Below the pieces are notes generated by a model. It did not search any database. It saw nothing but the letters and a program-made list of their open reading frames with translations, and was not told the DNA's origin. Shown here piece after piece: positions 2,111 to 31,267 of a stretch of DNA of 31,267 nucleotides (positions are counted from its first letter, which is position 1; each line of letters starts with the position of its first letter). Origin of the DNA: Halorussus marinus (GTDB taxonomy: Archaea > Halobacteriota > Halobacteria > Halobacteriales > Haladaptataceae); the NCBI RefSeq assembly GCF_004765795.1, contig NZ_SBIV01000007.1, positions 186,001 through 217,267 of the forward strand, written 5' to 3'. The position numbers were made by a program, and so were the translations under genes.

Positions 2111-3286
2111 TCAATCAATTAACTCCCACTGGTTAGTCATTCCTCCATAGACACGGTTTAAAACTCGTCGTCTCGAGAAAATACGGGCAAATAAAACAGG
2201 GTGGCGGAGGAGACGCAGTAGAACTGTACTCGGAGACCGGTCAACGTCTTCAATATCGATCCCGGCAGCGGCACGAATTGCTGCTCCCAGAACCTTGGGA
2301 TTACGAGTTTCAAGAAAGTATCTCACAACTGTGGCGAAAATGTACTCCGTTTTCATCCTCTGATATAATCTATCAGGATAATTGTGTAATTGGCCTCTGT
2401 TAGCCAGCTCTGCGGCCAAGAATCCCGATTCAATGGCCTGTGAGATCCCCTTTCCGGTGAGTCGGTTTGCTATACCTGCAGCATCACCCACTCGTACGAC
2501 TGAATGCTCCGGTAGATGGGTTCTGTCGGGATCAAGGCTTGGTCCCTCGGGAATGATTGCGACGTTCGTCCGTTCCTGCGACGGGACTGGCCACCCATTC
2601 CGCTCACAGGCTTCCCTCAATGCCTTCATATAATCATTAGGCCGGTCACTGACCGTCCAGCCGATACCAACGTTGGCTCGTTGCGATGTCTTCGGGAATG
2701 CCCACGAGTACCCTGTATAGTTCTCCAGAATTATCCGGCTGTTCGGGTACAACTCGGTGAAGTCCCCTTCGACATCACTGTTAAGCGCTACCATATATCC
2801 TGAATACTCGTTGGTTGTTCCGAGCGCTTTACTAGAGAGTGATGGCTGACCGGTTGCATCAACGACGAGATCATACTCATCGGTGAACTCGTGGAAATCT
2901 GTCCGTGTGATAGACTGGTTTTCGTGGATGTCAACACCCTTCTCTGAGAGTTGTTCTGCCCAGGACTGCTCAACGACATTTCGGTCCGTTATATATGTAT
3001 CCGCAGCAGGAAAGGTGCCGGCTCCAGTGCGGTGGCGATCGGCGTCGATTCCGTCATACACCTCCACTTCCATCGCTGGCAGCGGGTTGAGAAAGCCGTT
3101 CTCTACAGTCGGTTCGAGTGGGATCTTCGATACCGCTGTCATCGCTTCTCCGCAATTAACGCCTTTGCTATCGTAGGACTGCCGCTCATATAGTTCGACG
3201 ACGAATCCAGCGTCGTCGAATCCAGCAGCTGCTGCAAGCCCGGCCATCCCTCCACCTATTACCGCAATTTTGGACGTTCGAGTCAT
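2111..3286 (-). CDS. FAD-dependent oxidoreductase, geranylgeranyl reductase family
   Basis: Rossmann motif IAVIGGGMAGL, NCGE, GYSWAFP (GGR YxWxFP motif), ANVGIG and VGDAAG...TGKGISQAIESG. Start taken at MTRTSK (3286). Confidence 0.85.
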   Translation of the reverse strand: MTRTSKIAVIGGGMAGLAAAAGFDDAGFVVELYERQSYDSKGVNCGEAMTAVSKIPLEPTVENGFLNPLPAMEVEVYDGIDADRHRTGAGTFPAADTYITDRNVVEQSWAEQLSEKGVDIHENQSITRTDFHEFTDEYDLVVDATGQPSLSSKALGTTNEYSGYMVALNSDVEGDFTELYPNSRIILENYTGYSWAFPKTSQRANVGIGWTVSDRPNDYMKALREACERNGWPVPSQERTNVAIIPEGPSLDPDRTHLPEHSVVRVGDAAGIANRLTGKGISQAIESGFLAAELANRGQLHNYPDRLYQRMKTEYIFATVVRYFLETRNPKVLGAAIRAAAGIDIEDVDRSPSTVLLRLLRHPVLFARIFSRRRVLNRVYGGMTNQWELID

Positions 3287-3314
3287 CGGTTTTTGCCAAT
3301 CTTTGAGGCCATCG

Positions 3315-4316
3315 TTAAGCTCCCAACAGCATCCGAAGTGACCCACGAACGCCCATCGGGAGTCCGATCGCTCCGATGAAGAACGTCATAAGCCACCACC
3401 ACGTGTGATTCATCTCCTCTTTCGCATCGGCGAGATACCACACGATGCCGACAGTCACGACGAGTTTCAGCACGAACGTCGATCCGGAGAATCCAGTCGC
3501 CTGGTACACGAGATTCGTCACGACCAGCTTTGGGGAGTAGCCGAGGAACGTCACACCGATGAGATTCTGCGCAGCGTCCCACAACTGGCCGAAAACGGCC
3601 AGCAGAATTAGCGGGTGTCGAAGGTGGGTGATATTGGCGAAACTCGTGCCCCAGTAGTAGAGTGCGGTTACGCCGAGCGCTATCCCCGTCGTCGCGACAG
3701 GAACCCATAGGCGGAGTGGGGTCGATGTCGAGAGGCCGTGCCAAACAGCCCACCAGACGGCCCCGACAGCCCACACCGACCCGACGAGCCCGACTGTTAG
3801 CGGGATAGATCCGATATTTTGGTCACGCAAGAGTGCACCGACACCGAGCGCGAGGATGGTGACAGCGGTGACGACGATGTAAATCGATGGCGTGATGAAC
3901 CACACCGCGTAGTCCCCGAGCAGCCCGAGATCCTCGAGGGCGCGCATCGCCCCACCTGCGATGATGATCGGAGCGAACCCGTAGGCCAGTCGTGCGTCGA
4001 ACGTGACGTCGAGTTGGTCGAGATACGCACGTAGTCCGGGGAGGCTGTATACGACTGCCGCGAGGTAGATTACCGTGTTCACCGCGTTGTAGCCCTGGAC
4101 AGCACGAATCCCCTCGTGCGTGACTGGCTGACCGGCCGCATCGGCGACGACTGGTCCCCAGAGATACTGCCAGATGAACCGGTCGTAGACCAACGTCGGA
4201 AACACGAGGATGCCCCCACCGAGAAGGACGAGCGGGGCCAGCAGGTACAGCGCCCACCACTCGCGTGAGCCGGTCTCCGGAAGGACAGTCTCGACGCGGC
4301 GGGTGACAGTACTCAC
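3315..4316 (-). CDS. Polytopic membrane protein, DUF63-like
   Basis: Contains YDRFIWQYLWGPVVADA, GYNAVNT, GGAMRALED and GLPMGVRGSLR. The GTG start at 4316 overlaps the upstream TGA (GTGA), with a GGAGGTGA RBS at 4324-4331. Family name is from recall. Confidence 0.8.
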   Translation of the reverse strand: MSTVTRRVETVLPETGSREWWALYLLAPLVLLGGGILVFPTLVYDRFIWQYLWGPVVADAAGQPVTHEGIRAVQGYNAVNTVIYLAAVVYSLPGLRAYLDQLDVTFDARLAYGFAPIIIAGGAMRALEDLGLLGDYAVWFITPSIYIVVTAVTILALGVGALLRDQNIGSIPLTVGLVGSVWAVGAVWWAVWHGLSTSTPLRLWVPVATTGIALGVTALYYWGTSFANITHLRHPLILLAVFGQLWDAAQNLIGVTFLGYSPKLVVTNLVYQATGFSGSTFVLKLVVTVGIVWYLADAKEEMNHTWWWLMTFFIGAIGLPMGVRGSLRMLLGA

Positions 4317-4554: not shown

Positions 4555-7161
4555 TTAGCGAAGAAATCCGAAGAGCTTGTAGTCGTGATCGGGGGTGTAC
4601 CGCCGGAACAGGAGACTGTTCGTCAGCACCGACACCGACGAGAACGCCATTGCTGCTGCAGCGAGCACGGGCTGGAGGAGGCCGAGCGACGCTAACGGAA
4701 TCATCGCCGTGTTGTAACCGAGCGCCCACACGAGGTTCTGTTTGATCTTCTGGAGTGTCGCGTCTGAGATTCGGATCGCCTTTACCACGTCGAGCGGGTC
4801 GTCTCGCATCAGCGTGACGTCTGCAGCTTCGATGGCGACGTCGGTGCCGGAGCCGATTGCTGTCCCGACGTGTGCGACCGCGAGTGCCGGAGCGTCGTTG
4901 ACGCCGTCACCGACCATCATCGCCTGCCGGCCCTCGTCTTGAATACTGTCGACCGCGTTGGACTTGTCCTCAGGAAGGACTCCTGCGCGGACGTTCTTCG
5001 GGTCGATACCCACCTGTTTAGCGACCGCACGGGCAGTTCGCTCGTTGTCGCCCGTAATCATCATCACGTCAACTCCCCGCTCCTGGAGTGCTGTGACAGC
5101 CTGCTTGGAGCTTTCCTTCACTGTGTCGGCGTCGGCGACCACACCCACGAGCTCCCCCTCGTAGGCGACCAGCATCGCCGTCTTCCCCTCGTTCTCGAGG
5201 CGTTCCATCGTCTCCTCAGCGGGAGAGGGGTCGATCCCGTTGTCCCGCAGCAGCTTGCGGTTGCCGACCAGCACCTCGCTGTCACCAATGACTGCTTTGA
5301 TCCCGTGGCCCGGAACGTTCTCGAAGTCGTCAGGCTCAGTCACGTCCAGGCCGCGTTCTTCGGCCCCTTCGACGATTGCACGGGCGAGCGGGTGTTCGCT
5401 GCCGCTTTCAGCTATCGCCGCCAGTCGAAGCACATCATCCTCTGAGAGGCGCTCACGGGTGCTGAGCTGTCCACCATCTGGGGTCGGCTCGCCACCGTCA
5501 GTCACCACATTTCCATCGCTATCAAAGACGACCACGTCGGTGAGTTCCATTTCACCCTCCGTGAGGGTGCCCGTCTTGTCGAAGACGACCGTGTCGACGT
5601 CTTTTGCGCGTTCGAGGATGTCACCGCCCTTGAACAGGACGCCGTTCTGGGCACCAATCGTCGTCCCGACCATCGTCGCTGCGGGCGTCGCCAGCCCCAG
5701 CGCACAGGGACAGGCGATGAGGATCGAGGACGCGAAGACAATTATCGCGAACTCGAAGACTGAAACGGTCCCACCGACCGGGGCCGGGCCGCCAGCAACC
5801 TGACCCCACAGCGGGAGCCAGTCGACGAAGCCAGCGAGAGCCTCGGGGAACAGGAACCAGACGACACCCCAGAGAAGGGCGTTCGCGATGACCGCAGGCA
5901 CGAAGTACGCGGAGATGCGGTCGGCGAGATTCTGGATGTCGGGCTGGCGCGACTGGGCCTCCTTGACTGTCTGGACGATCTGTTGGAGGGCCGTGTCTTC
6001 TCCAACCTTCGTCGCCTCCACGACAAGGACGCCGTTCTCGTTAATCGTCGAGCCGACGACCTCATCGCCCTCCTCTTTCTCGACAGGCACAGATTCGCCA
6101 GTGACCATTGACTCGTCGACGGCAGACTGACCGTCGACAACGACACCGTCTGTGGGAATCTTCTCACCTGGACGAATTTTCATCCGGTCACCAGTTGTGA
6201 CCTCTTCGAGTGGAACTTCTTCTTCACTGCCGTCCTCGCGGACAATGGTCGCCGTTTCGGCTTCCATTTCGAGGAGCTTTCGGAGGGCCTCACCCGCTTG
6301 GCCCTTCGACCGAGCTTCGAGATAGTTACCCAACGTGATGAACACGAGGATGAGGGCTGCCGTGTCGAAATAAAGTCCACCTGCAATGAGTTCAGCAAGG
6401 ACTGCCACAGAGTATAGATAGGCCGTTGTTGAACCGATCGCAATCAGCACGTCCATATTGGCGCGGCCGTTCTTCACGATCGCCTTGTACGAGTTCTTAT
6501 AGAACGGCCAGCCGAGGATCGCCTGTACCGGCGTGGCGAGGAGGAACTCAACCCAGCCAAGTTCCACACCGAAGACGGCTTCAGGGACGATCGCGCCACC
6601 GAGCAGATAATTGTCGATGAGGAAGAAGAGCAACGGTGCCGATAACACTGCCCCAAAGAGGGTCAACCTGAGTTGTTTCCGAGTTTCGGCTTGACGGGCG
6701 GCATCTCGTGCGTCCTGGCCCGACTCTTCGTCGGCACCATCTTCGCGGACGGGCGAGTAGCCAGCCTCCTCGATAGCATCGTACAGCGCACCAATAGATA
6801 CTTCCGCAGGATTGTAGGTGACCTGTGCTTCGTCGGTTGCGTAATTGACCTCCGCATTAACGACGCCCGGAATATTTTCAAGAGCGGTTTGGTTGGTCTC
6901 GGCGCAGTTGGCACAGGTCATATCGGAGATGGCAATCGTTACCGTCTCAGAGACTGCGCCGTACCCGGCCTCGTCGATCGCGTCGTAGATTTCTTTGAGC
7001 GATACCTCTTCAGGGTCGTAGGTGACGGAACCCTCGTCGGTGGCGAAGTTCGCATCCGCCTCCGATACCCCGTCGAGCGATTCGAGAGTGTCCTGGATCG
7101 TCGCCGAACAGTTGGCGCAGGACATTCCCGTGATATCAAGATGGATTGTTTGGCTTGTCAT
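4555..7161 (-). CDS. copA: Cu(I)-translocating P1B-1 ATPase with two N-terminal HMA domains
   Basis: GMSCANC and DMTCANC HMA motifs, [31 protein letters not shown], and the YN and MAFSS transmembrane ligands. Confidence 0.97.
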
Positions 7162-8178: not shown

Positions 8179-8249
8179 CAAATCCCGATTCTCGTCGAAT
8201 CGGATTCGGAGAGGGATTGATACGACTGCCAATCCCAGGTGTAGATACT

Positions 8250-11033
8250 ATGACTGATACACTTCCGTTCGATGCCGTCCGCGAGCTCGACGTCGACGGG
8301 ACGACGTACAAGATGGCCGATCTTCGAGCACTCGAAGAGCAGGGGCTCTGTGACCTCGACACGCTCCCTGTGAGCATCCGTATTCTGCTTGAGTCGGTGC
8401 TCCGGAACGCCGACGGCGAAACTGTTACTGCAGCGGATGTCAAGAATGCTGCTGGCTGGAAGCCAGACGTACCGGACGCAGAGGTTCCGTTCTCTCCATC
8501 ACGAGTCGTCCTACAGGATCTCACTGGCGTGCCCGCAGTTGTCGACCTGGCGGCCCTTCGATCCGAAGTCGACCGCAAAGATCGGGACCCGACCCTGGTC
8601 GAACCAGAGATCCCTATTGATCTCGTAATCGACCACAGCGTCCAAGTCGACTACTTCGACTCCGAGGACGCCTACGAGAAGAACGTCGAACTGGAGTACG
8701 AGCGCAACGCCGAACGGTATCGCGCGATCAAGTGGGCGCAGAACGCCTTCGAGAACTTCAACGTCGTCCCGCCGGGGACCGGCATCGTCCACCAGGTGAA
8801 TCTCGAGCATCTGGGCCGGGTCATCCACGCCCGCGAGCGAGACGGTGAGAAATGGCTCCTGCCGGACACACTCGTCGGCACGGACAGCCACACCCCAATG
8901 ATCGGTGGCATCGGTGTGGTCGGCTGGGGCGTCGGCGGCATTGAAGCGGAAGCGGCAATGCTCGGTCAGCCGGTCACGATGAAACTTCCCGAGGTCGTCG
9001 GCGTCCGCCTCGAAGGCGAATTACCCGAGGGCGCGACGGCGACGGATCTCGTGCTCCACATCACCGAACGGCTCCGCGAGGTCGGCGTCGTCGACCGGTT
9101 CGTCGAATTCTTCGGTCCTGGTGTGGAGAATCTCACAGTCCCCGACCGGGCCACGATCGCCAATATGGCGCCCGAACAGGGCTCGACGATCAGTATGTTC
9201 CCGGTCGACGAGCAGACGCTCGAGTATCTCGAACTCACCGGGCGTGACCCCGCCCACATCGACCTTGTTCGCGAGTACCTCGAAGCGCAAGGGCTATTCG
9301 GAGAACAGGAACCGGAATACACCGAGGTGGTCGAGTTCGATCTTTCGACTGTTGAGCCGAGTCTCGCCGGACACAAGCGGCCACAGGACCGGATTCCGAT
9401 GGGGGACGTGAAACAGAGCTTCCGGGGACTTCTCCACGGGGAGTTCGAAGACGACCTCGATGATGTCGACGAAGACGCCCTACAGCGGTGGCTCGGCGAA
9501 GGTGATGCAGCTGGTGCGGAGACCGACGGCGGTGTTCAGGTCGAACCCGAATCGGAACTGCACCCGTTAACCAAACGCGTTGAGGTCGACCTCGACGGTG
9601 AGACAGTGGAAATTGGACACGGAGACGTCCTCGTCAGCGCCATCACGAGCTGTACGAACACTTCGAACCCGTCGGTGATGATCGCTGCTGGTCTGCTTGC
9701 CCAGAACGCCGTCGAGAAAGGTTTAGATGTCCCGCCGTACGTCAAGACGAGTCTCGCACCCGGCAGTCGCGTCGTCACGCAGTACCTCGAGGAATCGGGC
9801 CTGCTTCCGTATCTCGAAGAGCTCGGGTACGCGGTCGTCGGCTACGGCTGTACCACTTGTATCGGGAACGCCGGACCACTTCCCGATCCCATCGAGCAAG
9901 CGATCGACGACCACGACCTCTGGACGACGAGCGTCCTCTCCGGAAATCGGAACTTCGAGGCGCGTATTCACCCGAAGATCCGCGCGAACTACCTCGCGAG
10001 CCCGCCGCTCGTCGTCGCCTACGGCCTCGCAGGGCGGATGGACGTCGACCTCGAGAACGAGCCGCTAGGCACCGACGAGGAGGGGGGATCGGTGTATCTG
10101 GCGGACATCTGGCCCGACGCAGCGGACGTGCAGGCAGCAATCCACGAGAACGTCTCTCCTGAGATGTTCGAGGAGAAGTATGCCTCTGTGTTCGAGGGTG
10201 ACGAGCGGTGGGCTGCTCTCGACGCGCCCACAGGTGACGTCTACGAGTGGGACGACGACTCGACATACATCCGAGAGCCGCCGTTCTTCCAGGACTTCCC
10301 CCTCGAAAAACCCGGCGTCGCCGATATTGAGGATGCACGCTGCCTGCTGACACTCGGCGATACCGTTACGACCGACCACATCAGCCCTGCTGGCCCCTTC
10401 GGATCTGACCTCCCTGCCGGCCAGTGGTTGCTCGATAACGGCGTTGAGCCGCACGAGTTCAACACCTACGGCGCGCGCCGGGGCAACCACGAGGTGATGA
10501 TGCGGGGAACGTTCGCCAATGTCCGCATCGAGAACGAGATGCTCGACGATGTCGAGGGTGGCTATACGATCCACCACCCAACCGACGAGCAGACGACCGT
10601 GTTCGAAGCCAGCCAGCGCTACCGCGAGGAGGGAGTCCCGCTCGTCGTGATGGCAGGCGAAGAGTTCGGTACCGGCTCCAGCCGGGACTGGGCGGCGAAA
10701 GGAACGGACCTACTCGGTGTTCGCGCAACCATCGCCGAGAGTTACGAGCGCATCTACCGCGACAACCTCGTCGGCATGGGTGTGCTCCCCCTGCAGTTCG
10801 ATGATGGCGACTCGTGGGAATCTCTCGGTCTGGATGGGTCTGAGATCTTCACGATCCACGGCCTCGATGACGGGCTCGATGTGATGGACGAACTGACCGT
10901 TATCGCCGAGCGCGCGGACGGGTCGACTGTCGAGTTCCCGGTCACAGCACAGGTCGGCACGCCGGCCGCCGTGACCTATATCGAACACGGCGGCATCCTC
11001 CACTACGTCCTTAGACGGCTCCTCATGCGATAA
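8250..11033 (+). CDS. acnA: Aconitate hydratase A
   Basis: LQDLTGVPAVVDLA, DHSVQVD, GTDSHT, AITSCTNTSNP and GYGCTTCIGN (the three Fe-S Cys), SGNRNFEAR, GSSRDWAAKG. Start at MTDTLPF (8250). Confidence 0.97.
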   Translation: MTDTLPFDAVRELDVDGTTYKMADLRALEEQGLCDLDTLPVSIRILLESVLRNADGETVTAADVKNAAGWKPDVPDAEVPFSPSRVVLQDLTGVPAVVDLAALRSEVDRKDRDPTLVEPEIPIDLVIDHSVQVDYFDSEDAYEKNVELEYERNAERYRAIKWAQNAFENFNVVPPGTGIVHQVNLEHLGRVIHARERDGEKWLLPDTLVGTDSHTPMIGGIGVVGWGVGGIEAEAAMLGQPVTMKLPEVVGVRLEGELPEGATATDLVLHITERLREVGVVDRFVEFFGPGVENLTVPDRATIANMAPEQGSTISMFPVDEQTLEYLELTGRDPAHIDLVREYLEAQGLFGEQEPEYTEVVEFDLSTVEPSLAGHKRPQDRIPMGDVKQSFRGLLHGEFEDDLDDVDEDALQRWLGEGDAAGAETDGGVQVEPESELHPLTKRVEVDLDGETVEIGHGDVLVSAITSCTNTSNPSVMIAAGLLAQNAVEKGLDVPPYVKTSLAPGSRVVTQYLEESGLLPYLEELGYAVVGYGCTTCIGNAGPLPDPIEQAIDDHDLWTTSVLSGNRNFEARIHPKIRANYLASPPLVVAYGLAGRMDVDLENEPLGTDEEGGSVYLADIWPDAADVQAAIHENVSPEMFEEKYASVFEGDERWAALDAPTGDVYEWDDDSTYIREPPFFQDFPLEKPGVADIEDARCLLTLGDTVTTDHISPAGPFGSDLPAGQWLLDNGVEPHEFNTYGARRGNHEVMMRGTFANVRIENEMLDDVEGGYTIHHPTDEQTTVFEASQRYREEGVPLVVMAGEEFGTGSSRDWAAKGTDLLGVRATIAESYERIYRDNLVGMGVLPLQFDDGDSWESLGLDGSEIFTIHGLDDGLDVMDELTVIAERADGSTVEFPVTAQVGTPAAVTYIEHGGILHYVLRRLLMR

Positions 11034-16204: not shown

Positions 16205-18487
16205 ATGGACGACCACAAAGATACAAATGAGAATCCCCCTGGAGGGGAACACCAGCAGGACGACAGCAGTCACCAGCACGAACACGGCGAGCAGGATGAA
16301 TCGGACGCCGAGTCGGACGAGCAGCGGGTAGAACAGGAGCTACTGGAAGAAGAGGCACACCCTGCTGCGGAGAGTGAGACAGTGCTCGACGAGCAGCACG
16401 AGCACGCTGGACACGAGGGCGAAGGACACGACCACGGTTCCCATGAGAGCCACGGTGAGGGGCATGGCGGGATGCACGAGGGCCACGAGCAGATGTTCCG
16501 CCGGCGCTTCTTCGTCTCGACGCTCCTGTCGATCCCAGTCCTGCTATACAGCGAAATGCTGCAGGAGTGGCTCGGGTTCTCCGTCCCCGCGTTCCCGGGC
16601 AGCGAGTGGATCAACCCCGTCTTCGCGGTCATCGTCTTCGCGTACGGTGGGATGCCGTTCCTCCAGATGGCGGTACCGGAACTGAAAGATCGGTCGCCGG
16701 GGATGATGACGCTCATCTCGATGGCGATCACCGTCGCGTTCGTCTACAGCCTCGCGAGCGTGGTCTTCCCGACGCAGTCGGCGTTCTTCTGGGAACTCGT
16801 CACCCTGATCGACATTATGCTGCTGGGGCACTGGATCGAGATGCGGTCGGTGCGACGGGCCTCGAGTGCGGTCGACGAACTGGCGAAGCTGATGCCGGAC
16901 ACCGCCGAGCGGATTACCGACGGCGGCGACACTGAGGAGGTCCCGGTGAGTGAACTCTCCGAGGGCGACCTCGTACTCGTCCGGCCGGGTGCGAGTGTCC
17001 CTGCTGACGGCGTCGTCGAAGAGGGAGACTCCGACGTCAACGAGTCCATGATCACGGGCGAATCGAAACCGGTCTCGAAAGACCCCGGCGACGAGGTCAT
17101 CGGTGGGACGATCAACGGCGACGGCAGCCTCCGCGTGCGCGTCGGTGCGACGGGCGAGGAGACGACGCTCGCGGGAATCATGCGCCTCGTCGAGGAAGCC
17201 CAGCAGAGCAAATCCAAGACACAGGTACTGGCCGACAGAGCGGCAGGCTGGCTGTTCTACGTCGCCCTCGCGGCGGCAGTCGTGACAGCAATCGCGTGGA
17301 CGCTCGCGGTCTCATTCGACGCAACGGTCATCGAGCGCGTCGTCACAGTGCTCGTCATCGCCTGCCCGCACGCACTCGGGCTCGCCATCCCCCTAGTGGT
17401 CGCAATCAACACGTCATTGGCGGCTCGCAACGGGATGCTGGTCCGGGACCGTATCGCGATGGAGGAGGCGCGGAACCTGGACGCCATCATCTTCGACAAG
17501 ACGGGGACGCTCACCGAAGGCGAACACGGCGTCGTCGACATGGCGACCGTCGAGGGCGTGGAAGAGGACGACGCTCTCGCGCTGGCAGCAGCCGTCGAAA
17601 GCGATTCCGAACACATGATCGCGCGAGCCATACGCGAGGCCGCCGACGAGCAGGACCTCACCGCACCTGACGCGACCGACTTCGAGGCGATCAAAGGCCG
17701 GGGCGTCCGTGCGAACGTCGACGGAAATGAGGTGTACGTCGGCGGGCCAAACCTGTTAACCCAACTCGATAGCGAGATACCCGACCATCTCCGCCGCTTC
17801 GCTGACGAGGCGGGACAGAACGCTCAGACGGTGGTATACCTTGTTCGTGAAGGCGAGCTGATTGCCGCGTTCGCGATGGCTGACGTAATCCGTGAGGAGA
17901 GTTTTCGTGTCGTCGATACCCTCCACGATCTGGGCATCGAGGTGGCGATGTTGACTGGGGACTCCCAGGATGTCGCCAACGCTGTCGCCGACGAACTGGG
18001 CATCGACACGGTGTTCGCGGAGGTCCTCCCCGAAGACAAGGACGAGAAAGTTCAGGAGCTTCAGGACCAGGGCAAGCTCGTCGGGATGGTCGGCGACGGG
18101 GTGAACGACGCGCCGGCGCTGACGCGGGCCGACGTCGGTATCGCGATCGGGAGCGGCACCGACGTCGCCGTCCAGTCGGCCGACGTCATCCTCGTCCAGA
18201 ACAACCCGATGGACGTCGTTCGGCTCGTGAAACTCAGTAAGGCGAGCTACCGGAAGATGCAGGAGAACATCGTCTGGGCGGCCGGCTACAACGTGTTCGC
18301 AATTCCGCTCGCAGCAGGCGTCTTGGCACCGATCGGGATTCTGCTCTCCCCCGCTGTGGGTGCGCTCCTGATGTCGTTGAGTACAGTAATCGTCGCGATC
18401 AACGCTCAGCTGCTCCGCCGCGTGGACCTGTCCATCCCCGAGCTTCCAAGCGGGACACCAGCGACTGACGCACAACCTGCAGACTGA
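16205..18487 (+). CDS. copB: Copper-translocating P1B-3 ATPase with His-rich N-terminus
   Basis: His/Glu-rich N-terminus, [33 protein letters not shown] and MSLST. Confidence 0.95.
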
Positions 18488-20270: not shown

Positions 20271-22796
20271 GTGTCTTCATCTCAATCCTCATCTTCCACG
20301 TGCGCGCTTTGTGGTAGGGCTGTCCCTGACGATAGAGTCGTGGGTGAGAACGACACCGTCTTCTGCTGTGATGGATGTCGAAACGTCCATCGAGTACTCG
20401 GTGGCGATGGAGTCCACAGTCGGATGGACCCGACAGACGACCCCATGCGCGAGTCCGGTGCTGGGGCGGGCGAACGCGATGCGGATACCCCTCGATTAGG
20501 GTCTGAGGAACGAGCTTTCTTTCAGGTCGACGGGATGCACTGTGCGACGTGTGAAGCATTTCTTGAATCAGTCGCCGAGGACTGCGAGGGTGTTGTAGAC
20601 GTGGCAGCAAGCTACGTCACCGAGACGGTTCGTATCACATACGACCCTGATCGCGTCTCGAAGGAAACTCTCTGTGATACCCTGAGTACACTCGGCTATT
20701 CGGCAACCCTCCGTGCTGGAGGGAGCGATGACACACCGACTATAATCGGACAGTCGCGCCGGTCGGACGAGCCGAATGAACGAGGGATTGACGAGGTGCT
20801 GGGATTCCGTTACGCTGCTGGCGTCATTTTCGGGACGTTCATGCTCCTCCCATATGCGGTCCTCCTCTATCCGGCGCAGCTCTCGTCGTTCTTTGGTGAG
20901 GGGACGCTCGATATGTACGCGAGTACGTCCGGGATCGGCGGTGGAGATGGCCTGTTGATCCTCCCGCTCTTTCTCGTTCTGACGGGTGTCGTCCTCGTGT
21001 TTACCGGCCTGCCGCTGTTACAGGGTGCGTATGTCAGTCTGAAGATGCGACAGCCGAATACGGACTTTCTCGTCGCGATCACCGTGGTGAGCGCCTACGT
21101 GTACAGCACGATTGCCTTTCTCCTCGGTCGACTCGACGTTTTCTACGACCTCACGATCGTGGTTGCCGCGAGTGTGGTGGCCGCCATCTTCTACGAATCA
21201 CTGAGCAAGCAGCGAGCGATGGATCGCCTGACGAATCTCACTATCTCCCACGTCACCGAAGCCAGGCGGTATGGCGCCGATGGGACGACGATGGTCGACG
21301 TACACAGTCTGGAACCCGGGGAACGGGTTCTCGTCCGTGAGGGCGAACGCATCCCAGTCGATGGTGTTCTCGCTGAGAGTGAGTGCACGGTCGATGAAGC
21401 GATCGTGACGGGCGAGTCGCTCCCGGTATCGAAACAAGCTGGGGACGAGGTCGTCGGCGGGGCGGTCGTCACAAATGGGGCTGCTGTCCTCACGGTGAGC
21501 GATGGGACAACCAGTAGTATCGATCGCCTCGTCACCTCTGTCTGGAATCTCCAGAGTGGGGATCACGGTGTCCAGCGGCAGGCCGATAAGCTCGCGTCAG
21601 TCATCATCCCGGTCGTCGTCGGTGGGGCGGTACTCGCTGGATTGGGGTCGCTTCTGGTGGGGACTGGTATTCCCGTCGCCGTCCTGACGGCGCTGGTAGT
21701 TCTCTTAGTGGGATGTCCGTGGGCACTTGGCCTGGCAACCCCGCTCTCGGTGGCAACCAGTATCGAACAAGCGGTAGAGCGGGGCATCGTCATCTTCGAC
21801 GAGACAGTCTTCGAGCGCCTTCGGAACGTCGACGTCGTCGTCTTCGACAAAACAGGGACTCTCACGACCGGCCAGATGGATGTCCTCGAGGTGGATGCAC
21901 CGTCGGATCTCCTTGAAACCGTCGCGGCCCTCGAACAGCGAGCATCCCACCCAGCGGCCGACGCAATCGTGAATACGTTTGCACAAAGGAATCAGGAGGG
22001 CGATCGCTCAAGAGCCGATGGGGGGGTTGCCGATGGCAGTGACCACGAGTACGCAGCGGACATCACCGAATTCACGAGCCACGCGACCGGCGTCGAAGGA
22101 GTCGTCGAGGACACGCGCGTTCTCGTCGGGAATCTCGATCTCTTCGCGGAACTTGGGTGGTCGGTGAGCGAGCAGATCGAGACGCGTGCCGCAGAGGCAC
22201 GAACGGCCGGTCACCTTCCGGTCGTCGTCGGTCGTGACGGTCATGCAGAGGGCGTCGTCGTCGTGGGGGACGAACCACGGGCAGGTTGGGATGACACACT
22301 CACGCAGCTGAATGACCGTGATATCGAGATCGTTGTTCTGACCGGTGATGACGAGGCTGCTACTGACTTTCTCGACAGTCATCCTGCCGTCGATCACGTG
22401 TTTGCGGGGGTCCCGCCGGCAGGCAAGACCGCGACGATCCGGCGGTTACAGTCCCGGGGACAGGTTACAATGGTTGGTGATGGAACGAACGATGCACCGG
22501 CTCTTGCGACCGCAGACCTGGGAATCTCGCTCGGTGGTGGAACGGCACTCGCGTCCGATGCCGCGGATATTTCTATCGTCGATGATGACCTCGCGGCGGT
22601 GGAGACGACGTTCGATCTCGCAGATGCAGCTCGTCGGCGTGTCAAACAGAACAACGGGCTAGCGCTGCTCTATAATGGGGTCACGATGCCACTCGCAGCG
22701 ACGGGGTTGCTGAATCCGGTGTTCGCGATGGGTGCGGTCGTGGCGACCGGCGGTCTCCTCGCAGCGAATTCGTTTCGAGACCTGCTTCACGAGTAG
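20271..22796 (+). CDS. Atypical heavy-metal P1B ATPase (N-terminal CxxC...CCxGC domain + HMA; CPW motif)
   Basis: CALC...FCCDGC, GMHCATC, TGES, GCPWALGLATP, DKTGT, SHP, GDGTNDAP and YN; GTG start. Confidence 0.92.
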   Translation: MSSSQSSSSTCALCGRAVPDDRVVGENDTVFCCDGCRNVHRVLGGDGVHSRMDPTDDPMRESGAGAGERDADTPRLGSEERAFFQVDGMHCATCEAFLESVAEDCEGVVDVAASYVTETVRITYDPDRVSKETLCDTLSTLGYSATLRAGGSDDTPTIIGQSRRSDEPNERGIDEVLGFRYAAGVIFGTFMLLPYAVLLYPAQLSSFFGEGTLDMYASTSGIGGGDGLLILPLFLVLTGVVLVFTGLPLLQGAYVSLKMRQPNTDFLVAITVVSAYVYSTIAFLLGRLDVFYDLTIVVAASVVAAIFYESLSKQRAMDRLTNLTISHVTEARRYGADGTTMVDVHSLEPGERVLVREGERIPVDGVLAESECTVDEAIVTGESLPVSKQAGDEVVGGAVVTNGAAVLTVSDGTTSSIDRLVTSVWNLQSGDHGVQRQADKLASVIIPVVVGGAVLAGLGSLLVGTGIPVAVLTALVVLLVGCPWALGLATPLSVATSIEQAVERGIVIFDETVFERLRNVDVVVFDKTGTLTTGQMDVLEVDAPSDLLETVAALEQRASHPAADAIVNTFAQRNQEGDRSRADGGVADGSDHEYAADITEFTSHATGVEGVVEDTRVLVGNLDLFAELGWSVSEQIETRAAEARTAGHLPVVVGRDGHAEGVVVVGDEPRAGWDDTLTQLNDRDIEIVVLTGDDEAATDFLDSHPAVDHVFAGVPPAGKTATIRRLQSRGQVTMVGDGTNDAPALATADLGISLGGGTALASDAADISIVDDDLAAVETTFDLADAARRRVKQNNGLALLYNGVTMPLAATGLLNPVFAMGAVVATGGLLAANSFRDLLHE

Positions 22797-22859: not shown

Positions 22860-23054
22860 TCATTCGAGCAATTCAAAGGCACCGAGCCCCGCGTACCCGA
22901 CCGCAAAGCCCGCAACGATGATGCCTCCGGAGAGGACTTGGTAGAACGGCGTCGACGGGAGGAAGCCGGTTGCGAAGGTGCCGACAACGATCAGTACCGC
23001 TGCCAGTTCCAAAAACACGTACTGACGACGTTTTCCCCTCATATATTGAGGCAT
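22860..23054 (-). CDS. Small two-TM membrane protein
   Basis: Basic N-terminus followed by two hydrophobic helices; follows 23097-24308 on the same strand. Start is uncertain (23054, 23042 or 23081). Confidence 0.6.
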   Translation of the reverse strand: MPQYMRGKRRQYVFLELAAVLIVVGTFATGFLPSTPFYQVLSGGIIVAGFAVGYAGLGAFELLE

Positions 23055-23096
23055 TTGTCCCCCTAGGTACCGTGAGATCACAGTAGATACCTTACC

Positions 23097-24308
23097 TCAG
23101 TCCGCCGGGATGATGGCAGCCGATTGATCGGGCTGTCGGGCTGCTTGGACCGAGTAGATTAGGCTCCCCGTGAAGAGGACGAAGCTTCCAACGATGAATA
23201 CTGCACTGAGCGGCGAGGCCGAATCGACGAACACCCAGTAGAGAGGGGCGGCAATCGATGGCCCGGCAGCAAGTACCGCGATCTTCGCGACGAGTGGCCC
23301 ACAGCATCCACAGGTACACGTCCCGACGATTGCAGCGCTTCCGGCGGTCCCTTCGGTCATGCCGGCTCGTTCCTCGACGCGCCAGTGACGGGCGATGAGA
23401 GCGGCGTTTAACCCGATGAGTGCGCTTAGCATCCCGACGACGATGACCTGGCCGGGTGACAGGGCTAGGAAGAACGGGATATGTATGAACGGGAGATGCG
23501 GAATCGCGATTTCGAGCGTCGGCCACGATACTAGCTGATAGATTGCGGGTAGAACGACGACCGTCACCTCTTCGGGGAAGCCCTCCTCGGGGAAAAACGA
23601 GAGGTATCCTGTTATAGAGACGAAAAAGAGTGCTAACACGACACCGACGCCGATGCCGAAGCGACGCGCAACCGGATCACGCATGACTGCGCGAATGACA
23701 CTCCCTGCGTCCTTCCAGACAACGTAGCCGACTAGAATTGGTGTTCCGAGGACGATTGCGTACCCAAGTGGGTGTGTATCACTTGCCAGTCCAGGAATGA
23801 GGTAGGGGTACGAGATCCACAATCCCATGAGGATGCCGAGGAACGTGTATCGTGGGCGGGATGGCCAGCGGAGCCACCCAACGATGAAGCTCGCGACCAT
23901 GATGCCCAAGCCACTCAGTAGGGCCAACGGCTGATACCACGACCGGGGGAACGGCATCGAACTCGCAGTATATGTCGGATCTGGGGAGAGCCCTTCGAAG
24001 AGAATTGCTCCGAGTGCCGTGATGGAGATCCCGACAAATACGCCGTAAAGGGCGGTTGTTGAGGTGATGCGATCGGTCCGTTTGAGAAGGATGAAGCCGC
24101 CGAGAATAACGGCACCAACGAAAGCAAGAAGTACACCGTGTCCTTGCGAGAGTCCACCGCTTCCGGTTGTACCGTGGGCGGACGCGACGGGAACCTGAGT
24201 GAGCGTAACAATTGCGGCAAGAAGTACAGAGAGTGGCCGAACAGACCCGATTCGAGTGGTCTGTCCACGGGAGGGATCTCCACGTGGGTGACGCTCTTCC
24301 GGTGACAT
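23097..24308 (-). CDS. Polytopic membrane protein with CTCGCCGP motif
   Basis: 403 aa with about 9-10 hydrophobic segments, a signal-like VASA-HG and a C-terminal GTCTCGCCGPL. Confidence 0.8.
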   Translation of the reverse strand: MSPEERHPRGDPSRGQTTRIGSVRPLSVLLAAIVTLTQVPVASAHGTTGSGGLSQGHGVLLAFVGAVILGGFILLKRTDRITSTTALYGVFVGISITALGAILFEGLSPDPTYTASSMPFPRSWYQPLALLSGLGIMVASFIVGWLRWPSRPRYTFLGILMGLWISYPYLIPGLASDTHPLGYAIVLGTPILVGYVVWKDAGSVIRAVMRDPVARRFGIGVGVVLALFFVSITGYLSFFPEEGFPEEVTVVVLPAIYQLVSWPTLEIAIPHLPFIHIPFFLALSPGQVIVVGMLSALIGLNAALIARHWRVEERAGMTEGTAGSAAIVGTCTCGCCGPLVAKIAVLAAGPSIAAPLYWVFVDSASPLSAVFIVGSFVLFTGSLIYSVQAARQPDQSAAIIPAD

Positions 24309-24436
24309 TATTCTGTCTTGGACAGAGAGGCACTTCTACCTGACTGATTTACCTCTGATATCCTGGGCTTGACTGTCGTTAGATCCTGCTGGCTGTGGAA
24401 ATATCCCCCTCCGAAAGTACGATCGGCACGGTGAAT

Positions 24437-24856
24437 TCACTCGCCGTCCAGAAATACGAGGAACTGTATATGCTTGAAGAACCAGACCGGAAGAACGGCT
24501 CCAACCCCTGCAGCGAGTAGGAGACTATTCGATGCTGTCCACACGATCTGTCCAAGTACGGTGCCAATAATCAAGACGCCGTTGTATGCAATCGCATTCA
24601 CCGCTAAATCGCCTCTTGACTCAGCCCGGGGCCATTTGATGAGACTGGGCCTGATTGCTGACGTCCGGCCGGATACTACTGCGATGAGAAGTCCGAGTAG
24701 GCCGGATACAAACCAGCCGAGTACAGCCGGTGGCCAGTTGTATACAACCGTTGCGGTGGCAAGAACAATCAGACACGGACTGGTGATTGTACCGATCTCT
24801 ACGGAGGCATAGCGGGTCAAAATGTGTTCCTCAGTCCCTTGTTGTGCGGTAGCCAT
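24437..24856 (-). CDS. Hypothetical four-TM membrane protein
   Basis: 139 aa hydrophobic ORF starting 40 nt downstream of the tRNA 3' end on the same strand. Confidence 0.65.
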   Translation of the reverse strand: MATAQQGTEEHILTRYASVEIGTITSPCLIVLATATVVYNWPPAVLGWFVSGLLGLLIAVVSGRTSAIRPSLIKWPRAESRGDLAVNAIAYNGVLIIGTVLGQIVWTASNSLLLAAGVGAVLPVWFFKHIQFLVFLDGE

Positions 24857-24896
24857 CTGTGAGGGTTATGGGTAGGGCAGTGGATCAGATCGGGGA

Positions 24897-24971
24897 TGCT
24901 CCGTCGAGGATTTGAACCTCGGTCCTCGACGTGAGATGCCGAGATGGTTGGCCGAGCTACACCAACGGAGC
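24897..24971 (-). tRNA. tRNA-Glu (anticodon CTC), divergent copy
   Basis: Reverse complement is GCTCCGTTGGTGTAGCTCGGCCAACCATCTCGGCATCTCACGTCGAGGACCGAGGTTCAAATCCTCGACGGAGCA. It has a 7-bp acceptor stem GCTCCGT/ACGGAGC, anticodon stem TCGGC/GTCGA with loop ATCTCAC, T-arm CGAGG-TTCAAAT-CCTCG and discriminator A; CCA is not encoded. Confidence 0.9.
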
Positions 24972-25010
24972 AGCTTCAACTTGGAGCTTCAGTACTTCAG
25001 GTCTGGTCGG

Positions 25011-25029
25011 TGTCCTATTCAGTGGGAAT
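25011..25029. promoter_or_regulatory. Imperfect dyad TGTCCT-N7-GGGAAT midway between tRNA-Glu and halocyanin
   Basis: 39 nt from the tRNA 5' end and 40 nt from the halocyanin ATG; resembles TGTCCC-N7-GGGACA upstream of the multicopper oxidase. Confidence 0.45.
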
Positions 25030-25069
25030 CCGCCGTTTCCCCTTATGTTGGGGTCTTTGATAATGTGGT

Positions 25070-25633
25070 ATGGAGCGTCGACAGGTTCTCAAGACAGCCG
25101 GAATTCTCGCAACAGGTGGCGTAACTGGTCTCGCTGGATGCAGTAGTTCGGGGAACGGAGACGGTGGCGGTGAGCCGACCACGACTGAAACGCAGGAGAC
25201 AGCTGGTGGGTCTGGAGACTCGAATACTGTTATGATGGTCACTGACGGGAGCGAGTATTATTTCGATCCCATTGGTCTGTTCATCGAATCCGGGGAAACT
25301 GTGACATTCGAAATCCAGAGCGGCAGTCACTCGGCAACCGCCTACAAAGAGGGAACGAGCTCAGCATCAGTTACCCGGATTCCCGAAAGCGCAGAAACGT
25401 TCAATAGCGAAACGCTGAGTGAACAGGGCGCAACGTTCGAGCACACGTTCGAGACCACGGGGACGTACGATTACTTCTGTATCCCGCACAAGACTCTGGG
25501 GATGGTCGGTCGGATCGTCGTTGGCGAACCCGGCGGTCCCGCGGAGGGGAGTATGCCGCCGGACGGAGACGTCCCCGAAAGCCAGACCATCGTTGATCAA
25601 GGCAGCGTCTCGTACAGCTCGTTCTCCGGGTAG
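25070..25633 (+). CDS. Halocyanin / plastocyanin-azurin family blue copper Tat lipoprotein
   Basis: MERRQVL...LAGC signal; type-1 Cu ligands in HSATAY and YFCIPHKTLGM. Confidence 0.92.
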   Translation: MERRQVLKTAGILATGGVTGLAGCSSSGNGDGGGEPTTTETQETAGGSGDSNTVMMVTDGSEYYFDPIGLFIESGETVTFEIQSGSHSATAYKEGTSSASVTRIPESAETFNSETLSEQGATFEHTFETTGTYDYFCIPHKTLGMVGRIVVGEPGGPAEGSMPPDGDVPESQTIVDQGSVSYSSFSG

Positions 25634-27162: not shown

Positions 27163-28317
27163 CTACGTGGAGTAGCCAGCGTACTCCATAAGTTGGTTGA
27201 AAATGTCAGTATCCATGACGGACCGATAGACCACGCCGGTGAGCATCCCGCCGGGATAGAACGTGCCGTTCATCACGTGGTTGACCTTGTGGCAGTGCAT
27301 CAGGTAGATGCCGGGGTCTGCATCGGCAGTAAATTCGATCGTGTGTCGTTCAGCGGGGGCGACGTTCGTGACGTCCATGTCGTGGCGGGCAGCCTCTGGA
27401 ATCGTCCCGCCGTCCTTTTCGACACGCTGGAAGCGGTGGTTATGGATATGCATCGGGTGCGACATGTATCCACCGTTGACGAGGTGGATGCGAACTGAGT
27501 CGCCCTCGTCGACGATGATCGGTGAGCCTTCTTCGGGGTGCAGCGTTCGGGGTGCGCTCTTCCCGTTGACGGTGAACACGTCCGGATTGCGACTGGCCGA
27601 ATTGTATGTGAAGTCCGCCTCACCGGCCCACTTCCGCGGAACCCGCGAATCCCAGTCCTTGATCGTCATGAAGTATTCGCGGTCCGCCGGTTCGTAGCCT
27701 TCGGGATCAACTCGGTAGATCCCGTACATGCCCATGTCGATATGCCGGTGGGTCTGGAAGTGGCAATGGTAGAAATGCGTTCCAGGGACGTTAGCGGGAA
27801 TCTCGTAGGTGTGTGTCTCCCCTGGCGGGACCTGAATCCCGGTCGTCGTCGGGACGCCGTCGTTCTCCCACGTCTTGCGAATTCCGTGGAAGTGAATCGT
27901 GTGGGGACGTCGGCCATCGGTGTTGTCGAGTGTCACCTCCATCGCGTTACCCTCGGTCGTTCTGAGAATTGGGCCTGGGACGCTGGGGTCGTTGTCGTCG
28001 GCCTGGAACGCCCAGACGCGTGGGAATTCGACGGGCCCACCCATTGTATCGAGCGGGTGGACGGCGTGGCGGGCCTGTTGAGTCCGCATCGTCACTCCAC
28101 CACCCTGCTCGTCGACGTTGACGACTGTTGGAGGGCTGGTGTAGGGGAGATTAGGCGAGTCAGTTTGTGTCTGCGTGGCCGTATCGCTCGTTGCTGCTGG
28201 CTCGTTAGCTCCGCCCGCCGAACAGCCTGCTAACGAAGCGATACCCGTCGCGCCAGTTGCCGCGAGAAACTCACGCCGGGACAGTCCGGTTCCGGGTGCG
28301 CCGAAACGTGTGGTCAT
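27163..28317 (-). CDS. Two-domain multicopper oxidase, Tat lipoprotein
   Basis: SRREFL...LAGC signal; HTIHFHG, YHCHFQTHRHIDMGM, HPMHIHNH and MHCHKVNHVM...GGM. Confidence 0.92.
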   Translation of the reverse strand: MTTRFGAPGTGLSRREFLAATGATGIASLAGCSAGGANEPAATSDTATQTQTDSPNLPYTSPPTVVNVDEQGGGVTMRTQQARHAVHPLDTMGGPVEFPRVWAFQADDNDPSVPGPILRTTEGNAMEVTLDNTDGRRPHTIHFHGIRKTWENDGVPTTTGIQVPPGETHTYEIPANVPGTHFYHCHFQTHRHIDMGMYGIYRVDPEGYEPADREYFMTIKDWDSRVPRKWAGEADFTYNSASRNPDVFTVNGKSAPRTLHPEEGSPIIVDEGDSVRIHLVNGGYMSHPMHIHNHRFQRVEKDGGTIPEAARHDMDVTNVAPAERHTIEFTADADPGIYLMHCHKVNHVMNGTFYPGGMLTGVVYRSVMDTDIFNQLMEYAGYST

Positions 28318-28362
28318 GATACACTCGGCATTTTGGTTGGCCTAAACATAGGGCGACTGCGG

Positions 28363-28381
28363 TGTCCCAATTCACGGGACA
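28363..28381. promoter_or_regulatory. Perfect dyad TGTCCC-N7-GGGACA upstream of multicopper oxidase
   Basis: 45 nt upstream of the oxidase ATG. Confidence 0.5.
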
Positions 28382-30824: not shown

Positions 30825-31140
30825 TCAGCGGCGGAGATATGCGACGAGGCAGGTCGTCAGGAGACAGAGGAGAATGAGAATTGCCACGCCCAGATGCGTC
30901 GTCACGATGGTCGGTTGGAGATCTTCCGTGACGGTCAATCCTCCGAGGATAACCTGTAACGGAAGGAGGACGAGAGCGGCCGTGGCCGACCATTTGACAA
31001 TCGGGGTATTACGGTGTGTCACCCACGCTCCAAGGGTCGTGCCGACGATCAGAACCCCGGCCGTCATCGCCAGTCCACGGTGAGCCCACTCAGCGAAGAT
31101 TTGGAGTGCAGAGTATGGCGAGTTAGCAATGATCTCGGGT
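30825..31140 (-). pseudogene. ctaA: COX15/CtaA heme A synthase, C-terminal part, interrupted by IS insertion
   Basis: PEIIANSPYSALQIFAEWAHRGLA...LQVILGGLTV...IVTTHLGVA carries the ExxHR, QxxLGG and HL motifs; the frame runs directly into the IS end at 31141. Confidence 0.8.
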
Positions 31141-31267
31141 GGCTGTGTTGAATCGCTGTAAGGCGGAGAGATTCACTGTTTGACGAAGCGTTTGATGTTA
31201 TAGACGACACACATCAGCGCGATCTCGCGGAACTCACGAAACCATGACCGCGCTCGCACGGCGAAGC
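31141..31267 (-). mobile_element. Right end of IS5-family (ISH1/ISH9-like) insertion sequence
   Basis: Terminal repeat GGCTGTGTTGAATC at 31141-31154 lies just past a transposase stop codon. Confidence 0.82.
31173..31265 (-). CDS. IS5-family transposase, C-terminal fragment (continues beyond window)
   Basis: ...FAVRARSWFREFREIALMCVVYNIKRFVKQ* matches my recollection of the C-terminus of haloarchaeal ISH9-type transposases. Confidence 0.82.
   Translation of the reverse strand, partial: FAVRARSWFREFREIALMCVVYNIKRFVKQ

Follow-up and report, generated by a model that had tools for sequence, protein, structure and literature searches.

The variant tRNA gene and its surroundings

The window, a 31,267-nt stretch of Halorussus marinus contig NZ_SBIV01000007.1, carries a variant tRNA-Glu(CUC) gene that lies between a divergent halocyanin-like gene and three co-oriented open reading frames (ORFs) of 139, 403 and 73 aa, the first of them 40 nt downstream (Table 1). 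The cloverleaf described in the initial annotation was recovered by ARAGORN, which calls tRNA-Glu(ctc) at 24894-24972(-), and by Rfam model RF00005, which matches 24897-24971(-) with 43 bits against a gathering threshold of 29 (E 1.2e-7); the Rfam gathering scan of the whole window did not report a tRNA at 24897-24971. As first described, the acceptor and T stems pair fully, the anticodon stem contains a single G30.U40 pair, and position 32 is A. The cloverleaf energy of -22.0 lies inside the housekeeping range of -20.7 to -26.3. In-silico minimum-energy folding missed the cloverleaf in family and housekeeping genes alike, and because it fails for the latter too, the alternative fold of the window copy is no evidence. 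We conclude that 24897-24971 is a real tRNA-Glu(CUC) gene. ARAGORN finds no other tRNA in the 31-kb window, so the locus is not a tRNA gene array.

Table 1. Features around the variant tRNA-Glu gene, in window coordinates
Feature	Position	Strand	Remarks
tRNA-Glu(CUC) variant	24897..24971	-	A32, A51-U63, no nucleotide 47, G1-C72, A73, no encoded CCA; allele-specific U22C
TATA position of the tRNA (-30..-25)	24996..25001	-	CCTGAA here; TTTGAA/TTTCAA in the remaining loci with this arrangement; homologue of the TATA box before cydA in cyd-type islands
Conserved imperfect dyad, putative operator	25010..25031		common to the halocyanin and tRNA (formerly cydA) promoters
Second dyad copy	28362..28379	+	upstream of a multicopper oxidase gene (27163-28317, -)
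Halocyanin-like cupredoxin	25070..25633	+	PF00127, E 2e-13; below the TIGR03102 cut-off; divergent from the tRNA
139-aa hydrophobic protein (ORF139)	24437..24856	-	DUF8215 (PF26650); 40 nt past the tRNA
403-aa multi-pass membrane protein (ORF403)	23097..24308	-	widespread haloarchaeal family
73-aa hydrophobic ORF	22860..23081	-	no Pfam or NCBIfam match
Heavy-metal P1B-type ATPase	20271..22796	+	converges on the membrane-protein run

The window copy holds the bacterial glutamyl-tRNA synthetase (GluRS) identity set of U35, C36, A37, U11-A24, no nucleotide 47 and G1-C72 (PMC9976931). U34 and U2-A71 are missing from it, likewise from chromosomal CUC genes. Several plasmid records skip a locus tag number at the tRNA position, and their tables give no RNA genes; because of the skipped tag, RefSeq probably already annotates the gene as a tRNA. 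Among assembled RNA contigs from four of 20 runs, one low-depth contig of 199 nt (depth 2.8; strand and ends not given) covers part of the tRNA and ORF139, and one run holds a 21-kb contig resembling DNA of a relative.

A plasmid-borne family defined by positions 32 and 63

Pattern and BLAST searches yielded 34 non-redundant family loci with 23 distinct sequences, ten non-family loci having been set aside beforehand. It is found on metal and respiration plasmids of haloarchaea, pNG600 among them, and occurs in 16 of 401 genomes of the order and in 12 plasmid records; all named genome matches are haloarchaeal, and no named record is titled chromosome. Because the patterns fix the D loop and the T loop, more divergent genes will have been missed. 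When loci were chosen by the downstream ORF (65-100% protein identity) and the tRNA was left unconstrained, all 18 had it at a distance of about 40 nt upstream. It was missing from eight loci whose ORF139 paralogues are distant (31-37%).

Comparison of these sequences indicates that two changes define the family, namely a purine at position 32 and U63, the latter mostly as A51-U63. Among the matches listed, all 78 housekeeping archaeal tRNA-Glu genes have G51-C63 and a pyrimidine at 32 (the set derives from 80 loci listed of at least 119, with one family member removed, two incomplete loci dropped and one locus counted as two genes). Across 301 genomes of the order, 517 standard tRNA-Glu genes are Y32/G51/C63, and the eight matches with a base other than C63 are all family members with A32 and A51-U63; each of the eight carriers retains two standard tRNA-Glu genes. 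A purine-32 scan of genome contigs with positions 51 and 63 left free returned family members in 33 of 33 cases, all with U63 (30 with A51, three with G51); the anticodon is UUC in one of them, from Saliphagus. Of 15 metagenomic tRNA-Glu loci with U63, 11 belong to the family. Non-family archaeal-type genes with U63 were seen in metagenome contigs L259, L261, L263 and L266 (three G51.U63, one A51-U63). The most divergent family member (L246:2500-2600) combines a UUC anticodon with G50.U64, A51-U63 and the weakest predicted T stem, and is flanked by a transposase and an EamA transporter.

The initial annotation had stressed differences in the T and anticodon stems. The gene does differ from housekeeping sequences, with 84% identity to the chromosomal CUC gene, but most of the differences noted fall inside normal haloarchaeal variation: G50-C64 is found in 6 and G30-C40 in 9 of 25 haloarchaeal housekeeping tRNA-Glu genes among the matches listed. 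The closest housekeeping gene found is a UUC isoacceptor, eight changes from the central sequence of the family. U22 stands opposite U13 in other family sequences and in 78/78 housekeeping genes among the matches listed, under a pattern that allowed C or U; the window allele has C22. A viral origin was considered and rejected, since viral contigs and phage records gave no family match, and four broader-pattern matches were standard-type or other tRNA-Glu.

The window contig has 57.6% GC and the large contigs of the genome 67-69%. Over the 701 nt that surround the tRNA, the sequence shows 100% identity to Haloarcula marismortui (H. marismortui) plasmid pNG600, with flanking blocks at 96-98%, and the host's own CUC and UUC tRNA-Glu genes sit on high-GC contigs. 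Low-GC contigs also hold two arrays of divergent tRNA genes, related to each other and with 14 and 15 genes, at C7:29732-35885 and C11:67665-71768; one of the two lies on the window's own contig, and the tRNA-Glu(CUC) genes of both have C51-G63.

In the open-access literature we found no description of this tRNA family, although Table S7 of PMC9897764 (archaeal tRNA scores) may list the gene. Taken together, the comparative data indicate that this variant tRNA-Glu family is real, selected and previously unremarked, and that it most resembles a non-proteinogenic tRNA, a class in which its membership is putative. Even if its role proves trivial, the family is a clean marker of a plasmid island moving among many haloarchaeal genera.

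Selection and promoter position

Among 16 loci sharing ORF139, two sequences differ on average by 0.054 in the tRNA, compared with 0.229 in the spacer and 0.213 at fourfold sites; the value for ORF139 codon positions 1+2 is 0.083. The tRNA is about four times more conserved than neighbouring neutral DNA. Locus pairs that lie 35-40% apart at fourfold sites differ at only 1 of 75 tRNA positions, and conservation ends sharply at G1 and one base past A73. Plasmid recombination could inflate this apparent conservation; flank types around the tRNA occur in mixed combinations.

A TATA-like hexamer at -30/-29 is kept across unrelated flanks, and 32 of 34 loci have T at -29. Over 1948 ORFs of the window's genome, the TTWW peak before ATG also falls at -29, and chromosomal tRNA boxes, where visible, mostly lie at -31 or further. 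Because the box of the family stands where it does before an ATG, the 5' leader of the tRNA appears to be very short or absent. In the window itself the hexamer reads CCTGAA, in agreement with the initial remark that no strong TATA box is visible; relative to its relatives, this allele has changed TTTGAA to CCTGAA in addition to U22C.

Constraint on the family nevertheless appears looser than on housekeeping genes. Single lineages carry U33A, A37U, U54G or A59C, and bases that face the ribosome vary (U33A, A37U, C34U); U35 and C36 are constant in the 23 distinct sequences, a constancy partly forced by some search patterns.

Linkage to cydAB and a shared dyad

In 27 of 34 loci the tRNA either has cydAB nearby or follows the former cydA promoter directly. 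cydAB is within 6 kb in 12 of these loci, in two arrangements and with two cydA lineages (53-100% versus 75-77% match to the query). Ten loci have a divergent halocyanin, then cydA, cydB, a small ORF and the tRNA with its own TATA box, two of them also with Mrp subunit D ahead of the tRNA; in two Halorubrum-type islands a different cydAB (75-77% to the query) lies upstream on the opposite strand. In 15 loci, the window's among them, 98-99 nt separate halocyanin from the tRNA. This spacer is homologous to the halocyanin-cydA spacer, and the cydA TATA is as far from G1 as the tRNA's own box is elsewhere. The simplest reading of this alignment is that a cydAB deletion placed the tRNA in register behind the cydA promoter. 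The other seven loci have a copper ATPase with sdhB and trpS next to them or are set in different surroundings; in L078, L084, L087 and L101 the tRNA is placed opposite a copper ATPase and is followed by sdhB and a tryptophanyl-tRNA synthetase gene, both of them extra copies, and by a peroxiredoxin gene. Five of six complete plasmids with island-type cydA carry the tRNA.

The dyad noticed initially at 25011-25029, which leaves 39 nt to the tRNA and 40 nt to the halocyanin start codon (ATG at 25070), proved to be a conserved motif of the island. Its consensus is exact in 24 of 25 distinct spacers, with a single change in the other; by a pattern derived from the first copy, it also precedes the multicopper oxidase gene and lies in the spacer between TFB and ctaA. 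The exact form occurs in 5 of 201 genomes, all of which carry the tRNA. The dyad is likely to be the operator of a plasmid regulator. Its recorded positions include C15:401-422, L050 and L054, and besides the sites named above it precedes another small operon.

A possible Glu-tRNA donor for heme synthesis

The genome has two full-length genes for the archaeal elongation factor aEF1A (C2:272814-274067 and C5:29578-30828). Both copies place an acidic residue, D405, at the position of E378 in Escherichia coli EF-Tu, which we take to be the equivalent of the Thermus residue. The glutamyl-tRNA reductase (GluTR) recognises the tRNA core rather than the loop, a statement not met with in the literature searched; the genome carries one gene of the hemA family, on the chromosome.

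On bacterial EF-Tu, A51-U63 binds more weakly than G51-C63 by 1.1 kcal/mol (PMC3239215 Table 2), and swapping the 51-63 pair lowered the affinity of Asp-tRNA-Asp threefold (PMC1904265). By the bacterial table, binding of the variant is predicted at -9.0 versus -10.1 and -10.6 for the chromosomal tRNA-Glu genes, that is, 1.1-1.6 kcal/mol weaker and borderline relative to the outlier cut-off of 1.3. As in bacteria (PMC1904265), the chromosomal tRNA-Asn and tRNA-Gln(CUG) of the window's genome have A51-U63, while tRNA-Asp and tRNA-Glu have G51-C63. In bacteria, the weakly EF-Tu-binding outliers that exist beside a second, normal gene include the cell-wall tRNA-Gly of Staphylococcus (PMC3239215); here too, normal isoacceptor genes are present and the T-stem pair is of the weak type by bacterial rules. 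In archaea, translation and the C5 heme route both use Glu-tRNA as substrate (PMC4284751). G1-C72 is an argument against its amidation to Gln (PMC9976931).

Because a T stem of the weak type coincides with retained GluRS elements, a substrate shared with the C5 route and a single hemA gene, we propose that the tRNA may act as a donor biased toward heme synthesis. The tRNA would be transcribed with little or no 5' leader, in the window from the former cydA promoter under the dyad operator of the island. Host GluRS would charge it, as suggested by the retention of U35, C36, U11-A24, the missing nucleotide 47 and G1-C72. A51-U63 would then lower aEF1A binding, as on tRNAs that hide misacylated Glu or Asp, and the free Glu-tRNA could reach the chromosomal reductase; induction of the island would thereby provide more heme for cytochrome bd and heme A. 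We give roughly a one-in-three chance (0.35) to the reading in which this is a selectively maintained plasmid tRNA-Glu family that works mainly outside translation, as a Glu-tRNA donor that escapes translation and feeds heme synthesis. The stricter version, in which the tRNA is dedicated to tetrapyrrole synthesis as a mobile, nearly leaderless gene, tuned to escape aEF1A, that raises plasmid-driven heme supply through host GluTR, is rather doubtful.

Cells have to divide Glu-tRNA between the C5 heme route and translation, and a natural two-position variant, available in culture on the H. marismortui plasmid pNG600, makes that division testable. The same variant allows the bacterial T-stem rule for elongation-factor binding to be tested in archaea. 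If the dedicated version held, archaea would have a non-proteinogenic tRNA, one that mirrors a known translation-only isoacceptor.

Points against the proposal and alternative explanations

Several observations weigh against the heme-donor proposal. The EF-Tu figures are bacterial, the archaeal residue is Asp and not Glu, and 1.1 kcal/mol is below the outlier cut-off. A51-U63 also occurs on the chromosomal tRNA-Leu(CAG) and many array tRNAs, chromosomal tRNA-Gln(UUG) has C51-G63, and the two array tRNA-Glu(CUC) genes, with predicted values of -9.8 and -9.2, lack G51-C63 as well; four of the 15 metagenomic U63 loci fall outside the family. A32 is rare in tRNAs (PMC5041475) and is no proof of exclusion from the ribosome, because A32.C38 in E. 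coli tRNA-Ala leads to miscoding without stopping decoding (PMC7293025). The heme-precursor idea of the initial annotation gains circumstantial support from the relatives in which cydAB lies between halocyanin and the tRNA, but the window's own genome has no cydA, and neither hemA nor cydAB is among the listed coding sequences of pNG600. No hemA or other consumer of Glu-tRNA lies near the tRNA in the annotated loci, and seven of 34 loci have neither cydAB nor the cydA promoter in the DNA examined. cydA is present in 185 of 401 genomes versus 16 with the tRNA, and in 50 plasmid records, five of which have the tRNA behind it. The linkage to cydAB may reflect shared plasmid ancestry only; it is not independent evidence, because all carriers may descend from a few related plasmids. 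Stem mismatches affect 8 of 23 distinct family sequences versus 1 of 22 haloarchaeal housekeeping sequences (Fisher p 0.02, with related sequences not independent), and two family copies are clearly broken, with a cloverleaf energy of about -8.8. The expectation that orthologous islands carry the tRNA, borne out in the 18 loci chosen by downstream ORF, fails in one case: a Halorarius plasmid (L348:10990-11030) retains halocyanin and cydAB, along with the small ORF and the TATA box of the tRNA, and has lost the tRNA together with ORF139. Finally, the window's TATA box is degenerate relative to 32 of 34 loci, and the TATA change, U22C and the loss of cydAB suggest that the window allele may be a weakened member of the family.

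The tRNA could instead be an ordinary auxiliary decoder that supplies extra Glu-tRNA for translation under stress, with A32 and A51-U63 as tolerated founder changes. The intact cloverleaf within the housekeeping energy range, the purifying selection and the conserved promoter all suit this explanation, as do A32.C38, which need not block decoding, and the array tRNA-Glu genes without G51-C63 on the same contig type. We nevertheless consider it unlikely, if entirely credible. Boosting of GAG decoding, suggested initially, was rejected because island genes use less GAG than the chromosome (59% of Glu codons in window genes versus 80% on high-GC contigs, or 41.8 versus 73.9 GAG per 1000 codons; cydA itself has 13 GAG and 12 GAA). 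This codon usage also counts against an auxiliary decoder, and so do the two standard tRNA-Glu genes in each of the eight carriers of the 301-genome sample, the copies with U33A or U37, and the 517 standard genes, which never show the family changes. A once-useful gene now hitchhiking on mobile metal islands would account for the excess of stem mismatches, the two broken copies, the T-loop and anticodon-loop changes, the clean deletion, and the TATA change and U22C of the window. For the family as a whole such decay is improbable, given divergence fourfold below flanking neutral sites, the near-identity of the tRNA between loci far apart at fourfold sites, the sharp limits of conservation at G1 and just after A73, and a TATA position kept across unrelated flanks; for the window's allele it is more likely and comes close to an even chance.

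About as improbable is a structural role, in which the gene serves as an RNase Z/RNase P processing signal, as the end of a transcript, or as a site of recombination between island modules that are shuffled there. Haloarchaea are known to have tRNA-like processing signals, many loci have ORF139 40 nt downstream, and upstream and downstream flank types are mixed around the tRNA. Processing of the downstream mRNA, another initial suggestion, fared poorly and is unlikely as the main function, because the tRNA has its own promoter in most loci and the downstream gene varies: the tRNA is kept without an ORF139 homologue in 11 of 34 loci, even where the next gene is unrelated or on the other strand. 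The gene differs in this from a tRNA-like processing element, which would lack its own promoter and precede a fixed co-transcribed gene. The Glu anticodon bases are also kept. An attachment site was rejected; as initially reported for the window, no integrase occurs among its 33 ORFs (Pfam), the genome holds no partial tRNA copy beyond other tRNA genes, and pNG600 lists one integrase-domain gene about 39 kb off. Least probable, in our estimate, is that the tRNA donates Glu to another non-ribosomal enzyme, or that it resists nucleases and serves as a backup or decoy against anticodon nucleases. The altered anticodon loop and T stem would fit escape from protein partners generally, but no neighbour resembling a transferase or a toxin is among the proteins scanned, no clear fold match was obtained for ORF403, and G1-C72 speaks against amidation to Gln (PMC9976931). 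A LanB-type gene was not found in the genome, a search in which control genomes were equally silent, so that absence is not shown.

Neighbouring genes of the island

ORF403 has invariant Ala44-His45 after the first helix and an invariant Cys-x-Cys-Cys-Gly-Pro motif (Cys333/335/336), which possibly form a metal site, and on these motifs the protein is possibly a copper-handling membrane protein. It has no Pfam, NCBIfam or PDB sequence match. Its AlphaFold model (pLDDT 77) gave no Foldseek match at E 0.001 and a best Z of 7.6 in a wide search, which does not by itself establish a new fold; the Atlas look-alikes are unnamed clusters. Homologues 65-91% identical occur in many records, usually without the tRNA in the flanks examined.

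Elsewhere the island encodes an aconitase (8217-11033), a geranylgeranyl-reductase-like enzyme (2111-3346), three P1B ATPases (4555-7161, 16205-18487 and 20271-22796), DsbA/DsbB-like proteins and a TRASH-domain regulator (Pfam). Copper harms enzymes that contain iron-sulfur clusters or heme, and on that basis the presence of aconitase, sdhB, cydAB and ctaA in one island would be understandable. The ctaA gene (30825-31267) is cut by the contig end, and contig C15 opens with a matching ctaA/TFB spacer, as in pNG600.

Comparison with known systems

The family shares with housekeeping haloarchaeal tRNA-Glu(CUC/UUC) the acceptor stem, D arm, missing nucleotide 47 and T loop, and differs from it by purine 32, U63 with A51 or G51, C16-U17, a plasmid location and a TATA box nearer to G1. 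Haloarchaeal plasmid tRNA arrays (PMC6333295, which deals with arrays only) similarly place redundant tRNA genes on mobile replicons, and two such arrays exist in the window's genome; the variant gene, in contrast, is solitary, near the chromosomal sequence type and set in a metal and respiration island. Like the Staphylococcus cell-wall tRNA-Gly, it is an extra gene beside a normal isoacceptor, that tRNA having 49-65 and 51-63 pairs of the weak EF-Tu type (PMC3239215, PMC9976931), whereas the variant is archaeal, plasmid-borne and of the glutamate type, has the additional purine 32, and shows weak factor binding by prediction only. The Helicobacter pylori tRNA-Glu(UUC) outlier is also a second tRNA-Glu with weak EF-Tu binding, of unknown function there (PMC3239215 Table 4). 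Its binding was measured and is much weaker (-8.0 to -8.6 versus -9.0 predicted here), and the variant differs in being mobile, archaeal and linked to cydAB and copper genes. In Acidithiobacillus ferrooxidans, tRNA-Glu isoacceptors are partitioned between heme and protein synthesis, a precedent for isoacceptors that differ in their use by GluTR (PMC4284751); the specialised isoacceptor there is excluded from heme synthesis, and our proposal for the haloarchaeal variant is the reverse.

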